In this document: positions 1 through 8,684 of the stretch, piece after piece
How positions within the stretch are numbered: the stretch's first letter is position 1
How the letters are laid out: every line of letters starts with the position of its first letter
Source: a virus
Taxonomy: Duplodnaviria; Heunggongvirae; Uroviricota; Caudoviricetes
Length of the DNA stretch: 8,684 nucleotides
Reading direction: 5' to 3' (one strand)
IMG/VR virus record: IMGVR_UViG_2909246061_000003
Location: 1 to 8,684 of that record
Translations under genes and position numbers: made by a program
The notes under the pieces: generated by a model
The model's database searches: none
The model's input: only the letters and a program-made list of their open reading frames with translations
Told to the model about the DNA's origin: nothing

Positions 1-192
1 TCAGGAGCATTTCTGATTAACACCACCGTTAAGAATCCACCCCTCAACAGCTTCACGAAGGTATGATTTGGGGTGGGTTCTGACTGGCTTCGGAAATCCG
101 TGCCGTTTGGTATAGTTCCAGATTGTCTGACGTGATGAAACACCGAGCTTGTTCATCACTTCTTTCTCAGGAATCAGGCTGGTATCGGTCAT
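1..192 (-). CDS. Excisionase-like small DNA-binding protein (lambda Xis / AlpA-like), 63 aa
   Basis: Complete ORF on the minus strand: ATG at 192-190, TGA at 3-1. GGAG lies about 7 nt upstream of the ATG (revcomp of 201-204). The motif W-x-Y-x3-G-FPKPV-x-Y-x3-V-x-W resembles the winged-helix core of lambda Xis and AlpA-type regulators, from memory. Position at the prophage edge fits int lying further left, off-window. Confidence 0.55.
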   Translation of the reverse strand: MTDTSLIPEKEVMNKLGVSSRQTIWNYTKRHGFPKPVRTHPKSYLREAVEGWILNGGVNQKCS

Positions 193-204
193 CTTAATTC
201 TCCA

Positions 205-231
205 GGCAAAAAGAAACCGCCATCAGGCGGC
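205..231 (-). terminator. Intrinsic terminator-like hairpin between the 55-aa ORF and the excisionase-like gene
   Basis: Minus-strand reading: stem CCGCC, loop TGAT, stem GGCGG, then TTTCTTTTT (plus 217-221 pairs with 226-230; A-run at plus 208-216). The stop codon of the upstream 55-aa ORF sits in the loop. Confidence 0.45.
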
Positions 232-390
232 TTGGTGTTCTTTCAGTTCTTCAATTCGAATATTGGTTACGTCTGCATGCGCTATCTGCGCCCATATCAT
301 CCAGTGGTTATAGCAGTCGTTGATGCCCTCTGCTTCGATAACTCTGTTGAATGGTTCTCCATTCCATTCACCTGTGACTCGGAAGTGCAT
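223..390 (-). CDS. Hypothetical small protein, 55 aa (below the ORF-track length cutoff)
   Basis: Hand translation of the minus strand: ATG at 390-388, TGA at 225-223, GGAG about 7 nt upstream. Product MHFRVTGEWNGEPFNRVIEAEGINDCYNHWMIWAQIAHADVTNIRIEELKEHQAA. No family recognised. Confidence 0.3.
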   Translation of the reverse strand: MHFRVTGEWNGEPFNRVIEAEGINDCYNHWMIWAQIAHADVTNIRIEELKEHQAA

Positions 391-403
391 TTATCATCTC
401 CAT

Positions 404-427
404 AAAACAAAACTCGCCGTAGCGAGT
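404..427 (-). terminator. Intrinsic terminator-like hairpin (proximal of a tandem pair)
   Basis: Plus 412-417 ACTCGC pairs with 422-427 GCGAGT, loop CGTA. On the minus strand the hairpin is followed by TTTTGTTTT. Confidence 0.45.
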
Positions 428-440
428 TCAGATAAAAGAA

Positions 441-459
441 AACCCGCACTCGGCGGGTT
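441..459 (-). terminator. Intrinsic terminator-like hairpin (distal of a tandem pair)
   Basis: Plus 441-447 AACCCGC pairs with 453-459 GCGGGTT, loop ACTCG. On the minus strand the 7-bp GC-rich stem is followed by TTTTCTTTTAT. Confidence 0.5.
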
Positions 460-479
460 CGCATTCGTTCAAATTGCGT

Positions 480-578
480 TTACTTCTTGGCGTTCTGTTC
501 ATCCATATCGATATACCATGGGTTGCTTCCCTTGGGCATGTTTAACGACTGCTCGCGATAGTATCTGATGCGCTCCAT
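480..578 (-). CDS. Possible cIII-like micro-ORF, 32 aa (very tentative)
   Basis: Hand translation: ATG 578-576, TAA 482-480. Product MERIRYYREQSLNMPKGSNPWYIDMDEQNAKK. Loose resemblance to the ERI...LN.PG.PKNGSN stretch of lambda/P22 cIII from memory. No convincing SD. Lies in the leftward operon where cIII would be expected. Confidence 0.2.
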   Translation of the reverse strand: MERIRYYREQSLNMPKGSNPWYIDMDEQNAKK

Positions 579-738
579 GAAATACTCGCGTGAGTGCTCA
601 GGTTGCTCTCATGATACCTGCTCAGTGATAACAGGTATGTTAAGGCGCTCTCTGTACTCCATGCCTGATGCTGCAAGGTCAACGTTTACCTTGTTCTGTT
701 TTTCTTTCGATTTCTCGGCGATGTTATGCCTGACATTG

Positions 739-981
739 TCAACCCGCCTCCTTCTGAACATAACGGTTATAAATCAGTCCCTGAGGGCCATAAGGAAGCG
801 GGATGTGCAACTCCTCTGGTTCAGAAACTATCCATTCTCCGGCCATCTCCGCTGGAGAGGTAATGATAAGTTGTTTGCTAATAAAAGGACCACTCCTCTC
901 AACAACAAGCTTACCATCTTCATTAATAAAAGCTTGGATGTCAGGTGTGCTTCCACACTTGGTGATGCAGCGTTTGAACAT
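739..981 (-). CDS. Hypothetical protein, 80 aa (ORF-track frame 739..1023; internal ATG with SD preferred)
   Basis: Minus-strand ORF. The ATG at 981-979 is preceded by GGGGGA at about 6 nt; the upstream ATG at 1023 has no SD. Product begins MFKRCITKCGSTPDIQAFINEDGKLVVERSG. No family recognised. Confidence 0.4.
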   Translation of the reverse strand: MFKRCITKCGSTPDIQAFINEDGKLVVERSGPFISKQLIITSPAEMAGEWIVSEPEELHIPLPYGPQGLIYNRYVQKEAG

Positions 982-1107
982 TTTGTGTCCCCCCATTTTA
1001 TGTACGGGGTAATTATAACACATTGAAATATAGTAATATTTGACGTAGATTTCTTTTGATCTATAAGCGATTTTTTAATGCTTTTAAGTTATAAATACTT
1101 GTTTTCA

Positions 1108-1524
1108 TCACCCATCTTGCTGCGGTGCTACTATTGAAAAGTGCTCACACCCTTTAGCCCAAATAGTTTTGATAGTTGTCCAACTGACTGGAACCTTGAT
1201 TTCGATTCTCCCGCTACAGTCACAAGTTTCGCAATCATCATCACCAAAGCATTCCGGGCAGCTTATAAACGTAGTTTCTGAAAATTCACCGGATAGCACA
1301 CCCTTAGCGCCGTTCTCGGCTGTTAGTCTCTTCGGCACCATGACCCAACCATCCGGAATTACCGGAGAGTTGCCGGGTTCTTTAATGTGCAAGCGAGGCT
1401 CACCATCTTTTGGCTCAGGCCACTGGCGCTCCATGTTGATCTTCAATTTATCTTCCATAGCAGCGGTAATTTCAGCATCGCTGATGCCAGCACGGCGCTG
1501 TGCATCCCACAACAGGAAATGCAT
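1108..1524 (-). CDS. Hypothetical Cys-rich protein, 138 aa, possibly the 3' remnant of a longer gene
   Basis: Minus-strand ORF with protein-like composition, whereas the overlapping plus ORF 1169..1558 is Ser/Leu-rich and starts on TTG. C-terminal CPEC-x6-CETCDC cluster suggests metal binding. No SD before the ATG at 1524. The frame is open upstream only to a stop at 1557-1555, right at the junction where lambda-like sequence begins. Confidence 0.4.
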   Translation of the reverse strand: MHFLLWDAQRRAGISDAEITAAMEDKLKINMERQWPEPKDGEPRLHIKEPGNSPVIPDGWVMVPKRLTAENGAKGVLSGEFSETTFISCPECFGDDDCETCDCSGRIEIKVPVSWTTIKTIWAKGCEHFSIVAPQQDG

Positions 1525-1566
1525 ACAGTACGGAACTAAACGCGGAAAAGCCGCTTAAGACATTCC

Positions 1567-1598
1567 CGCTCTTACACATCCCAGCCCTGAAAAAGGGC
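1567..1598 (+). promoter_or_regulatory. nutR-like N-utilisation site: boxA CGCTCTTAC (1567-1575) and boxB GCCCTGAAAAAGGGC (1584-1598)
   Basis: Seen directly. Matches lambda nutR boxA/boxB as I recall them, with about one mismatch in the spacer. The following leader down to the cII ATG also looks lambda-like. Confidence 0.8.
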
Positions 1599-1677
1599 AT
1601 CAAATTAAACCACACCTATGGTGTATGCATTTATTTGCATACATTCAATCAATTGTTATCTAAGGAAATACTTACAT

Positions 1678-1956
1678 ATGCAACTTACAAGTACTCGCAA
1701 GAAAGCGAATGCAATTACAAGCAACATCCTGAATCGAATTGCTGTACGTGGTCAGCGAAAGGTTGCCGACGCGTTAGGGGTTAATGAATCGCAAATTTCG
1801 CGATGGAAAGACAGCTTCATCCCCAAAATGGGAATGCTTCTGGCTGTTCTTGAATGGGGTGTTGAAGACGAGGAGTTGGCGGAACTGGCTAAGCAAGTAG
1901 CCAGAATGCTGACAAAAGAAAAAGCCCCGAAGAACGGCGAATTCTTCGAGGCCTGA
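1678..1956 (+). CDS. cII: Transcriptional activator CII homologue, 92 aa
   Basis: The stretch SQISRWK...IPK..MLLAVLEWGV.D...A.LA.QVA..LT..K.P is collinear with lambda CII. ATG at 1678 is preceded by AAGGAAA. The ORF-track start at 1618 is an upstream non-ATG extension and is not used. The N-terminal 25 residues differ from lambda while the leader matches, indicating a mosaic. Confidence 0.85.
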   Translation: MQLTSTRKKANAITSNILNRIAVRGQRKVADALGVNESQISRWKDSFIPKMGMLLAVLEWGVEDEELAELAKQVARMLTKEKAPKNGEFFEA

Positions 1957-1990
1957 TGTAGAAAGACTGGATCAATCCACAGGAGTAATT

Positions 1991-2152
1991 ATGACAAAAC
2001 GTCGTAAGAAATACCAGGAAAAAGAAGAGATTCGACACCCTGATTCACCTGAGGGATTAGTGGTAGCCGCAGCAAATAACAGGGCGTTCGCAGAACGCCT
2101 TGTTGGTGTTTACAGACTAGCCAAAGCAGGAGTGAAACATGGGCGTCGTTAA
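1991..2152 (+). CDS. Small basic ORF, 53 aa, using a lambda-O-like RBS and start context
   Basis: AGGAG at 1981-1985, then ATG at 1991. Product MTKRRKKYQEKEEIRHPDSPEGLVVAAANNRAFAERLVGVYRLAKAGVKHGRR. Overlaps the O-like start by 14 nt. Could be a real small gene or a by-product of a recombination junction. Confidence 0.3.
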   Translation: MTKRRKKYQEKEEIRHPDSPEGLVVAAANNRAFAERLVGVYRLAKAGVKHGRR

Positions 2153-2936
2153 GTTAGCTGATTACAGGCCTCAACTGGAGGTCGTGGAGCATCGCGTGGC
2201 AGATACCGAAGATGGTTTCATGCGCATTGCTAACGAGATTACCGACAGTCTGCTGATGGCTGATTTAACCGTCCGGCAGTTGAAGGTGATGCTCGCTATC
2301 ATGCGCAAGACATACGGATTCAATAAGCCGATGGATCGACTCACAAACACGCAGATAGCAGCCATGACAGGTATTCATCACACTCATGTTTGCGCTGCCA
2401 AGCGCCAGCTTATCGAGCGTAAATTCCTCATTGCTGATGGCGTGAAAATCGGAGTGAACAAGGTGGTTTCTCAGTGGATTAGCCAGGACAGCTTAACATT
2501 AGCTAAAACAGCTAATAAAACATTAGCCAAGTCGGCTAATGGGTATAAGCCAAGTCAGCTAAACACAAAAGACAATATACAAAAGACAATAAATACAAAT
2601 ACCCCCTTACCCCCTAACGGGGGCGGCGATGGGCAGGTTAAACCTGAACGTCGCAAGGCAGAACGAATCGACTACGAATCCTTCCTGAACGCCTACAACA
2701 CCGAAGTCGGTGACAGACTGCCACACGCTGTTGCGGTCAACGAGAAACGCAAACGCCGCCTGAAGAAAATCATCCCGCAACTGAAAACGCCAAACGTGGA
2801 CGGTTTCAGAGCGTATGTCAGGGCGTTTGTGCATCAGGCCAAGCCGTTTTACTTCGGAGACAACGACACGGGCTGGACGGCCGATTTTGATTACCTGCTG
2901 AGGGAAGACTCGTTAACGGGAGTTCGGGAAGCGTAG
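2139..2936 (+). CDS. Replication initiator, lambda O-like N-terminal domain, 265 aa
   Basis: AGGAG at 2128-2132, ATG at 2139, in-frame stop immediately upstream. N-terminal half is collinear with lambda O (RVAD.EDG...L...L..ADLT.RQ.KV.LAI.RKTYG.NKPMDR.T..Q). C-terminal half is not recognisably lambda O. Internal iteron-like repeats are listed separately. Confidence 0.8.
   Translation: MGVVKLADYRPQLEVVEHRVADTEDGFMRIANEITDSLLMADLTVRQLKVMLAIMRKTYGFNKPMDRLTNTQIAAMTGIHHTHVCAAKRQLIERKFLIADGVKIGVNKVVSQWISQDSLTLAKTANKTLAKSANGYKPSQLNTKDNIQKTINTNTPLPPNGGGDGQVKPERRKAERIDYESFLNAYNTEVGDRLPHAVAVNEKRKRRLKKIIPQLKTPNVDGFRAYVRAFVHQAKPFYFGDNDTGWTADFDYLLREDSLTGVREA
2477..2603 (+). repeat. Origin-like array inside the O-like gene: four iteron-like repeats followed by an AT-rich tract
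   Basis: Repeats of about 21-24 bp, each with internal dyad ATTAGC...GCTAAT: 2477-2497, 2497-2520, 2521-2544, 2545-2568. Then an A/T-rich tract to about 2603 (AAAAGACAATATACAAAAGACAATAAATACAAATAC). Same architecture as ori-lambda inside O. Confidence 0.5.
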
Positions 2937-2962
2937 CTAAATTTCATTCGCCAAAAAGCCCG

Positions 2963-3541
2963 ATGATGAGCGACTCACCACGGGCTACGGCTTCTGACTC
3001 TCTTTCCGGTACTGATGTGATGGCTGCTATGGGGATGGCGCAATCACAAGCCGGATTCGGTATGGCTGCATTCTGTGGTAAGCACGAACTCAGCCAGAAC
3101 GACAAACAAAAGGCTATCAACTATCTGATGCAATTTGCACACAAGGTATCGGGGAAATACCGTGGTGTGGCAAAGATCGAAGGAAATACTAAGGCAAAGG
3201 TACTGCAAGTGCTCGCAACATTCGCTTATGCGGATTATTGCCGTAGTGCCGCGACGCCGGGGGCAAGATGCAGAGATTGCCACGGTACAGGCCGTGTGGT
3301 TGATATAGCAAAAACAGAGCAGTGGGGGAGAGTTGTTGAGAAAGAGTGCGGAAGATGCAAAGGTGTCGGCTATTCAAGGATGCCAGCAAGCGCCGCATAT
3401 CGCGCTGTAACGATGCTAATTCCAAACCTCACCCAACCCACCTGGTCACGCACTGTTAAGCCGCTGTATGACGCTCTGGTGGTGCAATGCCACAAAGAAG
3501 AGTCAATCGCAGACAACATTTTGAACGCGGTCACACGTTAG
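2963..3541 (+). CDS. Q: Late antiterminator Q, lambda-type, read from the first in-frame ATG (192 aa); native start codon apparently lost
   Basis: Product has the Zn-binding CRDCHGTG...CGRCKGVG module and is collinear with lambda Q as I recall it. The frame is open upstream to 2891 and encodes ...VAKFHSPKSP before the Met-Met at 2963, matching lambda Q residues about 6-15, but no ATG/GTG/TTG or SD is present there. Only 26 bp separate it from the O-like stop. Confidence 0.75.
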   Translation: MMSDSPRATASDSLSGTDVMAAMGMAQSQAGFGMAAFCGKHELSQNDKQKAINYLMQFAHKVSGKYRGVAKIEGNTKAKVLQVLATFAYADYCRSAATPGARCRDCHGTGRVVDIAKTEQWGRVVEKECGRCKGVGYSRMPASAAYRAVTMLIPNLTQPTWSRTVKPLYDALVVQCHKEESIADNILNAVTR

Positions 3542-3583
3542 CAGCATGATTGCCACGGATGGCAACATATTAACGGCATAATA

Positions 3584-3612
3584 TTGACTTTTTGAATAAA
3601 GTTGGGTAAATT
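3584..3612 (+). promoter_or_regulatory. pR'-like late promoter (-35 TTGACT 3584-3589, 17-bp spacer, -10 TAAATT 3607-3612) with adjacent qut-like region
   Basis: Hexamers and spacing seen directly. The surrounding sequence closely resembles the lambda pR' region from memory, up to about 3640, where similarity ends. Confidence 0.6.
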
Positions 3613-3646
3613 TGACATCAACGATGGATAAATGCACTCGTTAAAT

Positions 3647-3685
3647 AAAGCCCTGAGTTAATAGCTCTGGGCTTTTTGCGTTTTA
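3647..3685 (+). terminator. Intrinsic terminator closing a short leader transcript from the pR'-like promoter
   Basis: Stem 3650-3657 GCCCTGAG pairs with 3665-3672 CTCTGGGC (one T-T mismatch), loop TTAATA, then TTTTTGCGTTTT. Confidence 0.5.
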
Positions 3686-3958
3686 AGCACGGCCTTTCTG
3701 AAAGCACATCAAACCAAATACCAGACAGACAATACCCTCACCTTATAGGGACACTTGCTTCAACAGGAGGGACGGTTAGGACCGCCATCCTATATGGGAC
3801 GACCGCCAATAGAACCACGGCCACGGTAATAGAACTCTTCAGAGATGGCACAGTCGCTGCCGGGCATACTTTTACGCTGAGAGATATTTCTTTTGGAGAC
3901 AGCAGGGCTCTAGGGGCTGATTTTGGAGGCTCCTTCGGGAATCTGTATAAGTTCTAAT

Positions 3959-3976
3959 CGGCCGCATCAGCGGCCG
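3959..3976. terminator. All-GC hairpin just past the gtrC stop, a possible operon-end or bidirectional terminator
   Basis: CGGCCGC (3959-3965), loop ATCA, GCGGCCG (3970-3976). A U-rich tract follows on the plus side only (TATCTCTTT). On the minus strand it lies 8 nt after the gtrC stop without a clean T-run. Confidence 0.35.
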
Positions 3977-3983
3977 TATCTCT

Positions 3984-5585
3984 TTACAGATAAGCGACGA
4001 AATAGCCGTCAATTTTCTTTATTTTAAGTTTGTCGCCATAGATGGATAGGGGCTTCTTGAGCCATGTATCGTCTGTGGCGACATATATCTCATTATTCCT
4101 TAGCGTACCCTTAGCCTTAATTTCGGCTATATATCTTTTGTTATTATCTATCGCTGCTTTGTCTGCTCTAGCAAAATACCCAAAATTAAGTTTCATTTTT
4201 TCTGAAGAAGCAAATTCAGCAAATGGGAGCCAATGTCTTAAGCTGAACTCATCGTAATCAGTGGTTATGATAGTGTCCTTCCCTTTGGAGATGACTTCCC
4301 ACTCTTTACTCAACATTTGAGAGCTGTATGGCTTACCAGTATATATCTCTCGAACGGCTTTGAAAAAGTTGCTTTCATCCGCCACTGATATTAATAGAAT
4401 AGGGAGCAAGACATAAGCAGAACTTTTCGAGGTTTTTGCTAAGTATGCCAAAACAATCAACATCAAGATCATCGTCACCGGCCAGAAGAACCGACCAGAA
4501 GAGCGAAAAACGCCACCAACCTTCATGAGAAAGTCATTCATTGGAATTTCAATGAGATTAAATCCATAAAAGTTAATTCGATAAGTTATAGAAACGGCAG
4601 CCAGAACTAAACAGAAGTACAATACAGGAGATTTTATAATTCTCCTGAAATCTATGGACTTTCTTAAAGAGGAGTCTATCAGCATAAACAAAAATAGCGT
4701 GATGATGCCTAATCCTAGATAATTTATACCCTCAAAGTTAGCCTGTTGACTCCCATGACTCAAGATAAGATGTGAGTATCTCTGGTCTCCTGGGTTGAAC
4801 CAGCCGGCAAGATCCATGTTAAGGAATCCGAATCCAGGGTATGGGTCAGAGCCTTTAATAACAAAGTATCCGGTAGCATACATTGCGAGAAATATTAACA
4901 CAGAGTAACACGCGAAAAAGAATGCCGATCTTTTTAAAGATAAACGGTTTGTGTTCAGTTTGTTTAAAATGTCAAATGCAAAAATTAAATACACCATTAT
5001 CAGCAAATATGCATGAATGGTGACTGAGAGAACTAAAATAGCAGCCCATCTTTTAAAGCAAAAAGACCTATTGATATAAAGGTAAAATCCAAAAAGAATT
5101 AGCCACTGAGCGCCTAATGCAAAGTGACCACCGGCACGATTTAAGAATATTGGTGCAATGCAGAAGAAGCATGAACCTATTGCAGAGAATATCTCATCCT
5201 TTGTTAACTTACGAAGAACCAAATACGCAGAAAACGTCATAAGCACAAAGCAAAGATACATCCAAAGCCCGTGATATTGAAATCTGGCGGGGAGAAAGTC
5301 GCTAAAAGGCTTGAATATGAAGGCCATAATTGGGATTGAGTCGGTGTAAACGATAGACCCACCTACACCCATCCCATAGTTATAATTTAGGCCAAGGGGC
5401 CACTGCAACAACGGAGTATTTCGGAAGAAATTCCATCCTGACCAGCTTTGACCAGGATCACCTATCATAAGCCATCCAACTCTTTTGAAGTCCAGCACAT
5501 TCACACCAACATACATAGCAAACATTGATGTCGTGAATATAAACATAAATAAGGACGCTAAAATCCTTTTTTGTGCCTTAGTCAT
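3984..5585 (-). CDS. Serotype-specific O-antigen glucosyltransferase, GtrC-type polytopic membrane protein, 533 aa
   Basis: Third gene of a gtrA-gtrB-gtr(type) operon. The ATG at 5585 overlaps the gtrB stop by 8 nt (ATGACTAA). N-terminal two-thirds has many hydrophobic segments; C-terminal hydrophilic domain of about 130 aa. Markedly AT-rich codon usage compared with neighbours. No close relative recognised from memory. Confidence 0.7.
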
Positions 5586-6501
5586 TGTGTTTATTCCTTA
5601 AGATGTAACGAGGCCTAGCCTTGACTTCAATATATATTCTTCCGATATATTCACCAAGAACGCCAATGCCGATAAGTTGAATCCCGCCCAAGAACAGGAT
5701 TGAAACAAGGAGTGAAGGATATCCTCTCACGGCATTTCCAAATGCAATAGTATCGATGATCATCCAGGCTCCGTAGATAAATGCAAGCCCAGCGACTAGT
5801 AATCCAATATAAGTCCACATACGTAGAGGGAATGTAGAAAAGCTAGTAATCCCTTCTAGAGCTAAATTCCAAAGCTTCCAGCCATTAAACTTTGTGCAAC
5901 CAGCGACTCGCTCAGCTCTGGCGTATTCTACTACATCTGTTTTCCCGCCAACCCAAGACAAAACGCCCTTCATGAACAAGTTTCTTTCTGGCATTAGTTT
6001 GATATTTTCTACCACTTCTCGTGACATTAAACGGAAGTCACCGACGTTCTCTTCAATTTTGGGATTGCTGATTTTATTGTGTAGCTTATAGAACCACTCA
6101 GCTGATTTTCGCTTTAAACGACCGTCAGTAGACCTGTCTGTACGTTTGGCCAGAACCATATCCGCCCCAGCCTGCCACTTCTCAATTAGGTGGGGGATTA
6201 CTTCAATTGGGTCCTGCAGATCTACATCAATCGGAATGACCGCGTCGCCTGTAGCTTGGTCAAGGCCAGCAAACAAAGCCGGTTCCTTTCCGAAGTTACG
6301 CGTGAAGGAGAGAGGAACTACGAGTGGGTCAGCAATGGCAAGCGCGTTAATAATTGATTCTGTAGCGTCTTTGCTACCGTCGTTAATGAAGACTATTTCG
6401 ACTTCATGCTGCTGAAGCCCTTCAAATTCCCGCACGGTTTTATAGAAGATTGGAATTGCTTCCTCTTCATTAAACACAGGAACGACCAGAGAAATTTTCA
6501 T
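5578..6501 (-). CDS. gtrB: Bactoprenol glucosyltransferase GtrB (GT2 family), 307 aa
   Basis: Near-collinear with Shigella/Salmonella phage GtrB from memory ([23 protein letters not shown]...FINDGSKD...DVDLQDP...). ATG at 6501 overlaps the gtrA stop (ATGA). Confidence 0.9.
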
Positions 6502-6860
6502 TTCACATCCCTAAAGACAATGAACTTTGAATAAATAAACCCGCACACCAGACTGATGGCGGAGAACAGAATTAAGGTGATGATTGGTGCCAGACCAGAT
6601 TTATCCGCCGCCCAACCCACAGCTGCGCTAAGCGTCCCCATAAAGCCGACGTAAAGCATGTATCGCATGGTTGTTGTGGATGACTTAAACGTGAATCTGG
6701 CATTTGCGAAGAAGCTAAATGACACAGCCACAACGAACCCGGCAAAGTTGCCAAGGGCCTGTCCTGTATGGAATGCATAGATGCAAATTGCGAACACTAC
6801 CCAGTGAATGAGCGTGTTAATGACACCTATCGATGTGTACTTGGCGAATAACTTTAACAT
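6498..6860 (-). CDS. gtrA: Bactoprenol-linked glucose translocase (flippase) GtrA, 120 aa
   Basis: From the internal ATG at 6860 the product [23 protein letters not shown]... matches GtrA at its usual 120-aa length. The ORF-track start at 6923 is a GTG extension and is not used. Confidence 0.85.
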
Positions 6861-6936
6861 TATAGAAATCAGTGAATTCGGAAAGGTCTGAAGTGTAGCA
6901 CCACAAACGCTATTGATCGACACCGCCGATCAGTAC

Positions 6937-6950
6937 TACTGTATTAATAT
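6937..6950. promoter_or_regulatory. Left half of an interrupted LexA (SOS) box: TACTGT plus the ATTAATAT centre
   Basis: Joining 6937-6950 to 8275-8280 (removing the IS and one copy of the duplication) gives TACTGTATTAATATACAGTA, i.e. CTGT-N8-ACAG with an AT-rich centre, close to the TACTG(TA)5CAGTA consensus. Confidence 0.6.
6943..6950. repeat. Target-site duplication ATTAATAT, left copy
   Basis: Identical 8-mer directly abuts both IS termini (6943-6950 and 8267-8274). Confidence 0.75.
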
Positions 6951-8266
6951 GGGTCTTCCCTTGTTGTGGTGGCTGAAGGCATGATAATGGTGTATTTAAT
7001 CGCCAGAGGTCACCGCCATGGACGAAAAGTCCCTCTACGCTCATATTCTCAACCTGTCCGATCCGTGGCAGGTAAAGTCCCTTTCTCTCGATGAAAATGC
7101 CGGTTCTGTTACTGTCACTATTGAGATCGCTGAAAACACCCGGCTAGCCTGTCCGGCCTGCGGTAAATCCTGTTCTGTTCACGATCACCGTCATCGTAAA
7201 TGGCGCCATCTTGATACCTGCCAGTTCACCACTATTGTTGAAGCCGATGTTCCACGAATTATGTGTCCGGAGCATGGCTGTCAGACGTTGCCTGTTCCGT
7301 GGGCTGGCCCCGGAAGCCGGTATACGTTGCTGTTCGAATTGTTCGTTCTCTCATGGCTGAAAATCAGCACCGTTGATGCTGTCAGGAAGCAACTTAAGCT
7401 CAGCTGGAATGCGGTTGACGGCATTATGACCCGGGCAGTTAAGCGAGGTCTTGCCCGGATAAAAAAGCCATTATCCGCCCGTCATATGAATGTGGATGAG
7501 GTCGCCTTTAAAAAAGGACATCGTTACATAACGGTGATCTCCGATCGCGATGGTCGGGCGCTGGCCTTAACGGATGATCGCGGCACAGAGAGTCTTGCCG
7601 GCTATCTTCGCACACTCACTGATGGGCAGTTGCTGGCTATCAAAACGCTCTCAATGGACATGAACGCGGGCTATATAAGAGCAGCGCGCATCCACTTACC
7701 CAGCGCGGTTGAGAAAATCGCCTTTGACCGCTTCCATGTGGCGAAGCAACTGGGCGAGGTAGTTGATAAAACCCGTCAGAATGAACATCCGCACCTCCCT
7801 GTTGAAAGCCGACGCCAGGCAAAAGGAACCCGCTTCCTGTGGCAGTACAGTGATAAGTGGATGACTGAATCCCGGCAGGAAAAGCTGATGTGGCTGCGTG
7901 CACAGATGAAGCTGACGAGCCAGTGCTGGGCGCTGAAAGAGCTGGCAAAGGATATCTGGAACAGGCCATGGAGCGAGGAAAGGCGGAGTGACTGGCAGAG
8001 ATGGCTGGCGCTGGCGGCTAACAGTGACGTTCCCATGATGAAAAATGCTGCGAAAACGATAGGAAAAAGGCTGTACGGGATCCTGAATGCGATGCGACAC
8101 AGTGTCTCAAACGGAAATGCGGAGGCACTTAACAGCAAGATAAGGTTGCTGAGAATAAAAGCCAGGGGATACCGAAACCGGGAGCGCTTTAAACTGGGAG
8201 TGATGTTCCACTACGGTAAGCTGAATATGGAGTTCTGAGCCTTCCCACCATGATCGGGGAAGACCC
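6951..8266 (+). mobile_element. ISL3-family insertion sequence, about 1.3 kb, with imperfect terminal inverted repeats
   Basis: Left end GGGTCTTCCC...GGTGG..GAAGGC (from 6951) mirrors the reverse complement of the right end (...GCCTTCCCACC...GGGGAAGACCC ending at 8266). Contains a single transposase ORF and is flanked by an 8-bp direct repeat. Confidence 0.75.
7018..8238 (+). CDS. ISL3-family transposase, 406 aa
   Basis: ATG at 7018. N-terminal Cys/His zinc-ribbon (CPACG...C..H.H) followed by a long catalytic region, typical of ISL3-type transposases from memory. The three antisense ORFs within it are taken as artefacts. Confidence 0.85.
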   Translation: MDEKSLYAHILNLSDPWQVKSLSLDENAGSVTVTIEIAENTRLACPACGKSCSVHDHRHRKWRHLDTCQFTTIVEADVPRIMCPEHGCQTLPVPWAGPGSRYTLLFELFVLSWLKISTVDAVRKQLKLSWNAVDGIMTRAVKRGLARIKKPLSARHMNVDEVAFKKGHRYITVISDRDGRALALTDDRGTESLAGYLRTLTDGQLLAIKTLSMDMNAGYIRAARIHLPSAVEKIAFDRFHVAKQLGEVVDKTRQNEHPHLPVESRRQAKGTRFLWQYSDKWMTESRQEKLMWLRAQMKLTSQCWALKELAKDIWNRPWSEERRSDWQRWLALAANSDVPMMKNAAKTIGKRLYGILNAMRHSVSNGNAEALNSKIRLLRIKARGYRNRERFKLGVMFHYGKLNMEF

Positions 8267-8274
8267 ATTAATAT
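8267..8274. repeat. Target-site duplication ATTAATAT, right copy
   Basis: See left copy. Confidence 0.75.
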
Positions 8275-8280
8275 ACAGTA
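8267..8280. promoter_or_regulatory. Right half of the interrupted LexA box: ATTAATAT centre plus ACAGTA
   Basis: See left half. Sits about 18 nt upstream of the RBS/ATG of the UmuD'-like gene; TAATAT within it could serve as a -10. Confidence 0.6.
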
Positions 8281-8297
8281 ACTATCGGAGGTGAGTT

Positions 8298-8684
8298 ATG
8301 GGATTCCCGAGTCCGGCTCAAGACTATGTTGAAGAGCGCGTATTGCTCGACAAGCGCATCATAAGCAGACCAGCGGCCACGTATTTCATGAGAGCGGGTG
8401 CAACGCATCACCGCGAAGGCATCCTGAATGGTGCTCTTCTGGTAGTGGATGCATCGCTATCACCATGTGACGGCTCGTTGCTGGTTTGCAGAATGGAAGG
8501 TGAGCTGAGGATTAAGCGATATCGCAAATCACCAAAGCCTCACCTGGAGGATTTGCAGACGGGAAGGCGTGAGGAGATACCGGCACACGATGACGGCACG
8601 AGTCCGGATGCGATATTTGGTGTGATCACCTACATCATAAACGATGCACGCTCTGGCGAGTTTGATGATTGTCTGATTATGTGA
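8298..8684 (+). CDS. UmuD'-like protein (peptidase S24 fold, natively lacking the N-terminal arm; phage P1 HumD-like), 128 aa
   Basis: GGAGGTGA RBS, ATG at 8298, in-frame stop at 8292-8294. Product begins MGFPSPAQDY, which corresponds to the GFPSPA segment immediately after the RecA-mediated cleavage site of UmuD/MucA. The rest is collinear with UmuD/MucA from memory, including the conserved Lys (RIKRY), but the GDSM Ser motif is replaced by GATHH. TGA ends exactly at the window edge. Confidence 0.75.
   Translation: MGFPSPAQDYVEERVLLDKRIISRPAATYFMRAGATHHREGILNGALLVVDASLSPCDGSLLVCRMEGELRIKRYRKSPKPHLEDLQTGRREEIPAHDDGTSPDAIFGVITYIINDARSGEFDDCLIM

Follow-up and report, generated by a model that had tools for sequence, protein, structure and literature searches.

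A lambda-type Q gene without its own start, joined by a deletion to a truncated replication gene in a defective prophage at the Escherichia coli sbcB-dacD locus

The antitermination protein Q of phage lambda is the closest described relative of the gene considered here. Its residues 1-44 form the antitermination torus at the channel through which RNA exits, helix 1 being residues 1-11 (PMC9388147), and residues 1-60 of the free protein are disordered (PMC7171158). By the account that PMC9388147 gives of Vorobiev et al. (2014) and of the thesis of Guo (1999), deletion of residues 1-38 and the substitution V6A each abolish antitermination but not binding to the Q-binding element (QBE). The present analysis concerns a natural Q allele, here called Q', that has lost the beginning of this segment. 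It lies in the Caudoviricetes record IMGVR_UViG_2909246061_000003, positions 1 to 8,684, and this whole stretch of 8,684 nucleotides is referred to as the window. Q' follows a truncated O-type replication initiator gene, O', and a first-pass annotation, made from the letters of the window alone, had proposed that a junction between the two genes removed P and the nin region and decapitated Q. We conclude with considerable confidence that the locus is a scar of recent prophage decay, and that Q' is a young pseudogene with a probably inactive product.

The O'-Q' junction

The argument depends on four adjoining or overlapping features.

2139-2936, plus strand: O', a truncated O-type replication initiator of 265 amino acids (Pfam PF04492; alignment with the M18 prophage)
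2891-2962, plus strand: leader of the Q frame, devoid of a start codon (translation, codon list, alignment with full-length Q)
2929-2931, no strand: deletion junction A, a 3-nt microhomology AAG common to the O and Q sides (alignment with M18)
2963-3541, plus strand: Q', an open reading frame (ORF) of 192 amino acids equivalent to residues 16-207 of lambda-type Q (PF03589; alignment)

Nucleotide alignment with lambda and with intact relatives maps the breakpoint to the AAG at 2929-2931. Window positions 1524-2931 correspond to positions 1501-2908 of the prophage region of E. coli M18 (L002) at 99% identity, and window positions 2929-3746 to positions 7432-8249 of the same region at 96.6%. Divided at the breakpoint, the M18 sequence reads ...GTTCGGGAAG / GGAAGTTTGC on the O side and ...GAGACTCGAAAG / CGTAGCTAAA on the Q side, and the window reads ...GTTCGGGAAGCGTAGCTAAA across the junction. 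Codon 264 of the O-type gene, which has 273 codons when complete, is there followed in a different frame by codon 5 of a lambda-type Q that has 207. Between the two match points M18 carries 4,526 bp, comprising the last nine O codons, a DnaB-type helicase gene, several small ORFs, the nin genes (ninB, ninE, ninX, ninF, rusA and ninH) and the ribosome-binding site of Q with its codons 1-4. The deletion junction, the loss of nin and the decapitation of Q were thus correctly proposed, but the supposed loss of P was not, because the gene that follows O in the closest relatives encodes a DnaB-type replicative helicase and not the lambda P loader.

The junction is a real homology breakpoint, not a product of chance or artefact, for it recurs in the closed E. 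coli PSS-10 genome and in NCBI assemblies of other isolates made independently. The pair of genes encoding 265 and 192 amino acids is also found on an ENA metagenome scaffold; the exact Q' protein was recovered from 212 index blocks and 100 contigs, and the exact O' protein from 88 contigs, while one of 5,426 complete E. coli genomes has the junction. The junction is a deletion scar, left by illegitimate recombination at a 3-nt microhomology with the loss of about 4.5 kb.

On the O side, the predicted protein matches PF04492 (Phage_rep_O) with 114.6 bits over residues 19-113 and has 99% identity with the M18 prophage's replication protein of 273 aa, an identity that ends after residue 264. Residues 1-264 are native and residue 265 is a foreign alanine (GCG), so that one residue replaces the last nine. 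The frame continues for 5 nt within Q DNA and ends at a TAG (2934-2936) lying out of frame across Q codons 6-7 (GTA GCT), which leaves the 26 nt (2937-2962) between the O-like stop and ATG 2963 that the first-pass annotation had counted. O' is therefore without its complete C-terminus, and the helicase gene that adjoins it in M18 and other relatives is absent.

On the Q side, the frame is open after an in-frame TGA (2888-2890), from 2891 to the TAG at 3539-3541, and its translation reads LPAEGRLVNGSSGSVAKFHSPKSPMMSDSP... Positions 2891-2929 of the leader are O-gene DNA in another frame, whereas 2930-2962 are Q codons 5-15 (SVAKFHSPKSP), most of which (VAKFHSPKSP, residues about 6-15) the first reading of the sequence had recognised as lambda Q. 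Listed one by one, the 24 codons that precede ATG 2963 in this frame include no ATG, GTG, TTG, CTG, ATT, ATC or ATA; the search for an alternative or non-canonical upstream start was accordingly negative, and 2963 is the first ATG, GTG or TTG of the frame in a mechanical ORF list. This ATG is Met16 of lambda Q. Lambda, HK97 and the prophages of M18 and strain 1506 each encode a Q protein of 207 aa with the N-terminus MRLESVAKFHSPKSPMM, and the full-length members listed for the cluster likewise have 207 aa and start at MRLES. The lambda N-terminus assumed in the first-pass annotation is consequently right, and the Met-Met of Q' is not the native start. A predicted product lacking residues 1-15 follows, as had been anticipated, though the physical loss is smaller. 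Q retains 203 of its 207 codons, having lost 14 nt of ORF (codons 1-4 and part of codon 5) together with the ribosome-binding site. The torus segment of residues 1-44 is nonetheless incomplete, since codons 1-4 are gone and no initiator serves codons 5-15, and the gene has no start codon of its own with a Shine-Dalgarno sequence.

The remainder of Q' is in excellent order. It matches PF03589 (Antiterm, Antitermination protein Q) with 192.6 bits against a cut-off of 26.7, aligns without gaps to the Q proteins of lambda, HK97 and M18, and is identical to residues 16-207 of lambda Q at 189 of 192 positions (98%). Nothing is missing from the four-cysteine zinc ribbon (CRDC...CGRC), from the DNA-binding body (residues 61-207) or from the C-terminal helix. 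The three differences from lambda Q (L87I, A127V and L135Q) are all found in the full-length Q of strain 1506, which indicates that they predate the deletion and rules out post-deletion drift as their source.

Expression and predicted activity of Q'

Translation of Q' is poorly provided for. The best duplex with the anti-Shine-Dalgarno sequence between positions -20 and -4 of ATG 2963/2966 has an energy of -0.1 kcal/mol, a value equalled or bettered at 70% of window positions, compared with -7.8 to -8.2 kcal/mol at four native Q starts and -6.0 to -6.9 kcal/mol at the starts of O' (-6.9), cII and orf53. The claims of the first-pass annotation that there is no ribosome-binding site here and that Q is poorly initiated are both borne out by the missing Shine-Dalgarno sequence. 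Internal ATGs at 3020, 3029, 3035 and 3062 were considered as better starts, but all are weak (-1.8 to -3.3 kcal/mol); similarly, a programmed -1 frameshift creating an O'-Q fusion was rejected, the overlap at 2891-2936 containing no X XXY YYZ heptamer.

Transcription is equally problematic. A consensus scan of positions 1000-4100 returned two sigma-70-like promoter sites, where 4.3 would be expected by chance in shuffled sequence. One is the late promoter pR' itself and the other lies at 1023-1051; no internal promoter for Q' was found inside O'. The window has no match to a known structured RNA in Rfam at gathering thresholds. The cII-O'-Q' block has no recognisable promoter, pR and the whole immunity region having been deleted, and for this reason 'poorly initiated' probably understates the case. 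The only plausible route to translation of Q' would be initiation independent of a Shine-Dalgarno sequence, or reinitiation after the O' stop. Reinitiation without a Shine-Dalgarno sequence is known in E. coli, but it is inefficient. The Q' product is probably both scarce and inactive.

The predicted inactivity follows from the published structures and mutants of lambda Q. A protein comprising residues 16-207 would be without helix 1, including V6, and on these grounds is predicted to bind the QBE and to fail in antitermination. The laboratory mutants (the 1-38 deletion and V6A) resemble Q(16-207) in combining a damaged N-terminal torus segment with a preserved QBE-binding body, and they are the best available predictor of its behaviour; the natural allele differs in that it loses residues 1-15 only.

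Immediately downstream of Q' lies the control region on which a lambda-type Q would act.

3584-3612, plus strand: pR'-type late promoter, TTGACT-17 nt-TAAATT, with the QBE between the hexamers (promoter scan; alignment with HK97, lambda and M18)
3620-3625, plus strand: AACGAT, a -10-like element of qut with a presumed role in sigma-dependent pausing (alignment)
3647-3684, plus strand: terminator-like hairpin and T-tract about 35 nt downstream of pR', in the position of tR' and with its putative role (RNA fold)

The QBE is of the HK97/HK022 variant, with two mismatches to lambda, as judged by alignment and the qut annotations of mEp and HK phages. The pausing role of AACGAT is assigned by homology with lambda pR' (PMC9388147); relative to lambda, this element has one extra base between it and the -10 hexamer, as in HK97. 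When positions 3618-3700 are folded as RNA (-21.5 kcal/mol), a 12-bp interrupted stem is followed by UUUUUGCGUUUU; HK97 and M18 conserve this hairpin, and strain 1506 has an identical copy of it, although it was not called by a simple terminator scan. The entire module of promoter, QBE, pause element and terminator is intact and identical to that of strain 1506, and the stretch of QBE and pause element is also identical to HK97, so that Q' stands before a complete cognate late promoter. Beyond the terminator, however, there is only a 70-codon tailspike stub, a terminator-like hairpin (3959-3976) and a convergent gtrC-like gene. Unlike the lambda late region, the remnant has no late genes 3' of its terminator, and the pR'/qut module now controls no phage gene.

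The prophage remnant at sbcB-dacD

The chromosomal setting of the window is known from PSS-10, where the corresponding DNA sits between the integrase at sbcB and dacD. PSS-10 and two further remnant variants (L005 and L006) all occupy this sbcB/int-dacD site, and every locus read has the same O'-Q'-gtrCBA order, differing only in the extent of the left arm (L004 > L005 > L006). The window represents the L005 variant with the addition of a 1,316-bp insertion of the ISL3 family.

An intact relative occupies the same locus in strain 1506 (NZ_CP059288.1, 1754305-1799497), a prophage of about 45 kb with all modules present. Positions 16198-17015 of this prophage (L009) are identical to window 2929-3746, with no substitution in 818 bp, and positions 40882-44088 are identical to window 3744-6950. 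Besides the site and the integrase end, the remnant and the strain 1506 prophage thus share identical DNA over one stretch that starts at Q codon 5 and ends 206 nt after the Q stop, and over another that begins with the tailspike 3' end and takes in gtrCBA as far as the S24 peptidase gene; Q' is 100% identical, in DNA and protein, to the corresponding part of the full-length 207-aa Q of strain 1506. In contrast with the remnant, the strain 1506 prophage has a full-length Q, an immunity region, a helicase gene, nin genes and some 24 kb of genes for lysis and morphogenesis. Its replication gene and O' are different alleles, and its cII region is only 93% identical; it must therefore be regarded as a close cousin of the parent, rather than the parent itself.

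Comparison with this relative, and inspection of the left arm and of O', adds the following features.

1567-1598, plus strand: orphaned lambda-type nutR, with boxA CGCTCTTA and boxB GCCCTGAAAAAGGGC (read directly; upstream of cII)
2478-2562, no strand: four 18-nt iterons at a spacing of 20-24 nt inside O' (repeat search; one family, D1)
3744-3746, no strand: deletion junction B, a 3-nt overlap ATA (matches to the strain 1506 prophage)
3745-3957, plus strand: tailspike 3' remnant, annotated as related to glycosyl hydrolase family 28 (100% match to the end of a 2,253-bp coding sequence in strain 1506)

Junction B fuses DNA just past the pR' terminator to the last 70 tailspike codons; between these two points strain 1506 has about 23.9 kb of genes for lysis, head and tail. 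A third deletion junction lies in the left arm, at 1524-1525. In the PSS-10 annotation a partial RecT gene abuts the 3' end of cro and then cII, and there are no repressor genes; together with the junction at 1524-1525, this shows that N, cI, the 5' part of cro, pL and pR have been deleted. What survives upstream of an intact cII (1678-1956) is a lambda-identical nutR with the tR1/cII leader (1567-1677), nutR being identified by boxA and boxB motifs of the lambda consensus. The two remnant variants L005 and L006 have different left-arm deletions with a common right endpoint, TA followed by CAGTACGG, at 1524-1525; this points either to a hotspot of deletion or to nested deletions at an earlier junction.

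The element is accordingly a defective (cryptic) prophage. It lies at an integrase-adjacent chromosomal site, it is missing modules of an intact relative, and three deletion junctions have been mapped. It retains int-xis, an orphaned nutR-cII-O'-Q' block, the pR'/qut/terminator module, the tailspike stub and, as cargo, gtrABC and an S24 peptidase gene.

Lambda ori lies inside gene O, and O' similarly retains an N-terminal iteron-binding domain with iterons inside the gene, followed, still within O', by an AT-rich tract at 2565-2600 (a tandem AT-rich 14-mer). This is an ori-like arrangement, now orphaned by the absence of a helicase gene, that may once have served as an origin.

Elsewhere in the left arm there is a truncated ORF for a dATP/dGTP pyrophosphohydrolase (DUF550; 1108-1524, minus strand) that matches only positions 45-96 of its profile, and the stretch of PSS-10 corresponding to window 480-761 carries the annotation of a DNA polymerase III theta-like pseudogene, interrupted by an internal stop; these two are also marks of decay. 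The gtr cargo (3984-6860, minus strand) consists of a DUF6311 gtrC-like gene, a GT2 gtrB/yfdH and gtrA; it is intact and 100% identical to the strain 1506 copy, and this O-antigen-modification function likely explains why the remnant has persisted. The ISL3-family insertion sequence (IS) occupies 6951-8266 (1,316 bp), with a transposase gene at 7018-8238 on the plus strand. Its terminal inverted repeats (GGGTCTTCCC...) are imperfect, and the target sequence is duplicated over 8 bp, ATTAATAT standing at both 6943-6950 and 8267-8274. PSS-10, L005, L006 and strain 1506 all lack this IS. As it lies upstream of gtrA, about 90 bp from the start of that gene (6860, minus strand), it could cut off the gtr operon from its promoter or regulatory region. 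At the prophage right end, beside dacD, lies a gene for an S24 peptidase (UmuD/HumD-like; 8298-8684, plus strand), the stop of which is the last codon of the window.

Alternative explanations and comparison with known systems

In the history that we favour, a lambdoid prophage at E. coli sbcB-dacD decayed recently through deletions at short microhomologies. Recombination at AAG fused O to Q and removed the end of O, the gene for the DnaB-type helicase, the nin region and the Shine-Dalgarno sequence of Q with its codons 1-4. Separate deletions in the same element took away the immunity region, including pR, and some 24 kb of late genes. Q' would then be a young pseudogene, weakly transcribed if at all, and any Q(16-207) that was made would bind the QBE without closing the N-terminal torus that blocks terminator hairpins, so that no antitermination would result. 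The absence of any substitution relative to strain 1506 implies that the decay is recent, and the Q' ORF is on this account intact because the deletion is young and not because of selection. Several observations weigh against this interpretation. The Q' ORF and pR', with its QBE, pause element and terminator, show no damage at all, and several variants that have decayed further (L004, L005, L006 and the window with its IS) preserve the cII-O'-Q'-pR' block unchanged, which could be read as retention. Reinitiation after the O' stop could yield some Q(16-207), and the literature offered direct tests of the 1-38 deletion and of V6A, but none of a deletion of residues 1-15.

A rival reading makes Q' a co-opted decoy. 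Q(16-207), produced at low level by reinitiation after the O' stop or by initiation without a Shine-Dalgarno sequence, would occupy the QBE of incoming phages with lambda- or HK97-type Q without antiterminating, thereby dampening their late expression as a form of superinfection interference. The QBE-binding body, zinc ribbon and RNA polymerase-contacting residues are intact, mutants without N-terminal function still bind the QBE, at least as they are reported in PMC9388147, the O' gene with its good Shine-Dalgarno sequence (-6.9 kcal/mol) stops only 26 nt before ATG 2963, and the block is unchanged in all remnant variants seen. Yet such a decoy would have to be made from a block that has lost pR, with nutR/tR1 but no N, and from a start without a Shine-Dalgarno sequence; retention is uninformative about selection when there is zero divergence from the intact prophage; the junction is confined, among complete genomes, to a single one; and a limited full-text literature search returned nothing relevant on a naturally truncated or decoy Q, and hence no precedent. 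We consider interference of this kind very improbable. We assign similarly little weight to the beheaded Q being active as a decoy or, conversely, to the orphan pR'-qut being activated in trans by an incoming full-length Q, in which case terminator-proof transcription would run antisense into the gtrCBA operon.

Two further explanations have little or no support. The presence of int, an AlpA-like xis, an iteron-bearing replication gene and a regulator followed by its promoter gives the locus a superficial resemblance to a compact mobile island, and in a streamlined satellite Q might natively follow the replication gene, with Met-Met as its true start. This is hardly credible when the DNA on either side of each junction has 96.6-100% identity with genes that are contiguous in complete prophages, when ORFs are cut in mid-gene (O by nine codons, Q by four codons and its ribosome-binding site, the tailspike to its last 70 codons, RecT and DUF550 to partial genes), when there is no helicase or primase gene and no packaging gene, and when the full-length Q proteins compared, like the cluster members listed, have 207 aa and begin with MRLES. 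An assembly or chimera artefact in the source contig has only its general possibility to recommend it and is refuted by the independent assemblies, since the identical junction occurs in the closed PSS-10 chromosome and in other isolates, the gene pair recurs on a metagenome scaffold and the exact protein on 100 contigs; its probability is practically negligible.

Recent decay of a lambdoid prophage is an ordinary process and not a new system; lambda Q, the qut site and cryptic prophages are textbook material, and the significance of the locus beyond annotation is small. Both truncated proteins are already in RefSeq (WP_072778255.1 and WP_338388825.1), where the 192-aa protein is named 'antitermination protein' and the 265-aa protein 'replication protein', neither being flagged as truncated; both are better read as remnants. 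Beyond this, the locus provides a clean, datable example of stepwise decay, with an intact cousin in strain 1506 and intermediates in PSS-10, L005, L006 and the window with its IS, and a natural Q allele without residues 1-15 could be used to probe how much of the torus helix lambda Q requires.

Compared with lambda gpQ, of which the closest alleles are those of HK97, HK022 and the mEpX phages, Q' has an intact zinc ribbon and DNA-binding body and is 98% identical in amino acids from residue 16 to residue 207, but it lacks the ribosome-binding site and codons 1-4, its codons 5-15 are untranslatable, and its product would miss torus helix 1. The element as a whole resembles cryptic lambdoid prophages such as DLP12, Rac and Qin of E. 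coli K-12, in which decay by deletion has likewise left int/xis, regulatory fragments and cargo genes. The Q-family genes of DLP12 and Qin, quuD and quuQ, are annotated as full-length, whereas the Q of the window is decapitated, and the remnant at sbcB-dacD is very young, with no point mutations relative to its intact relative.

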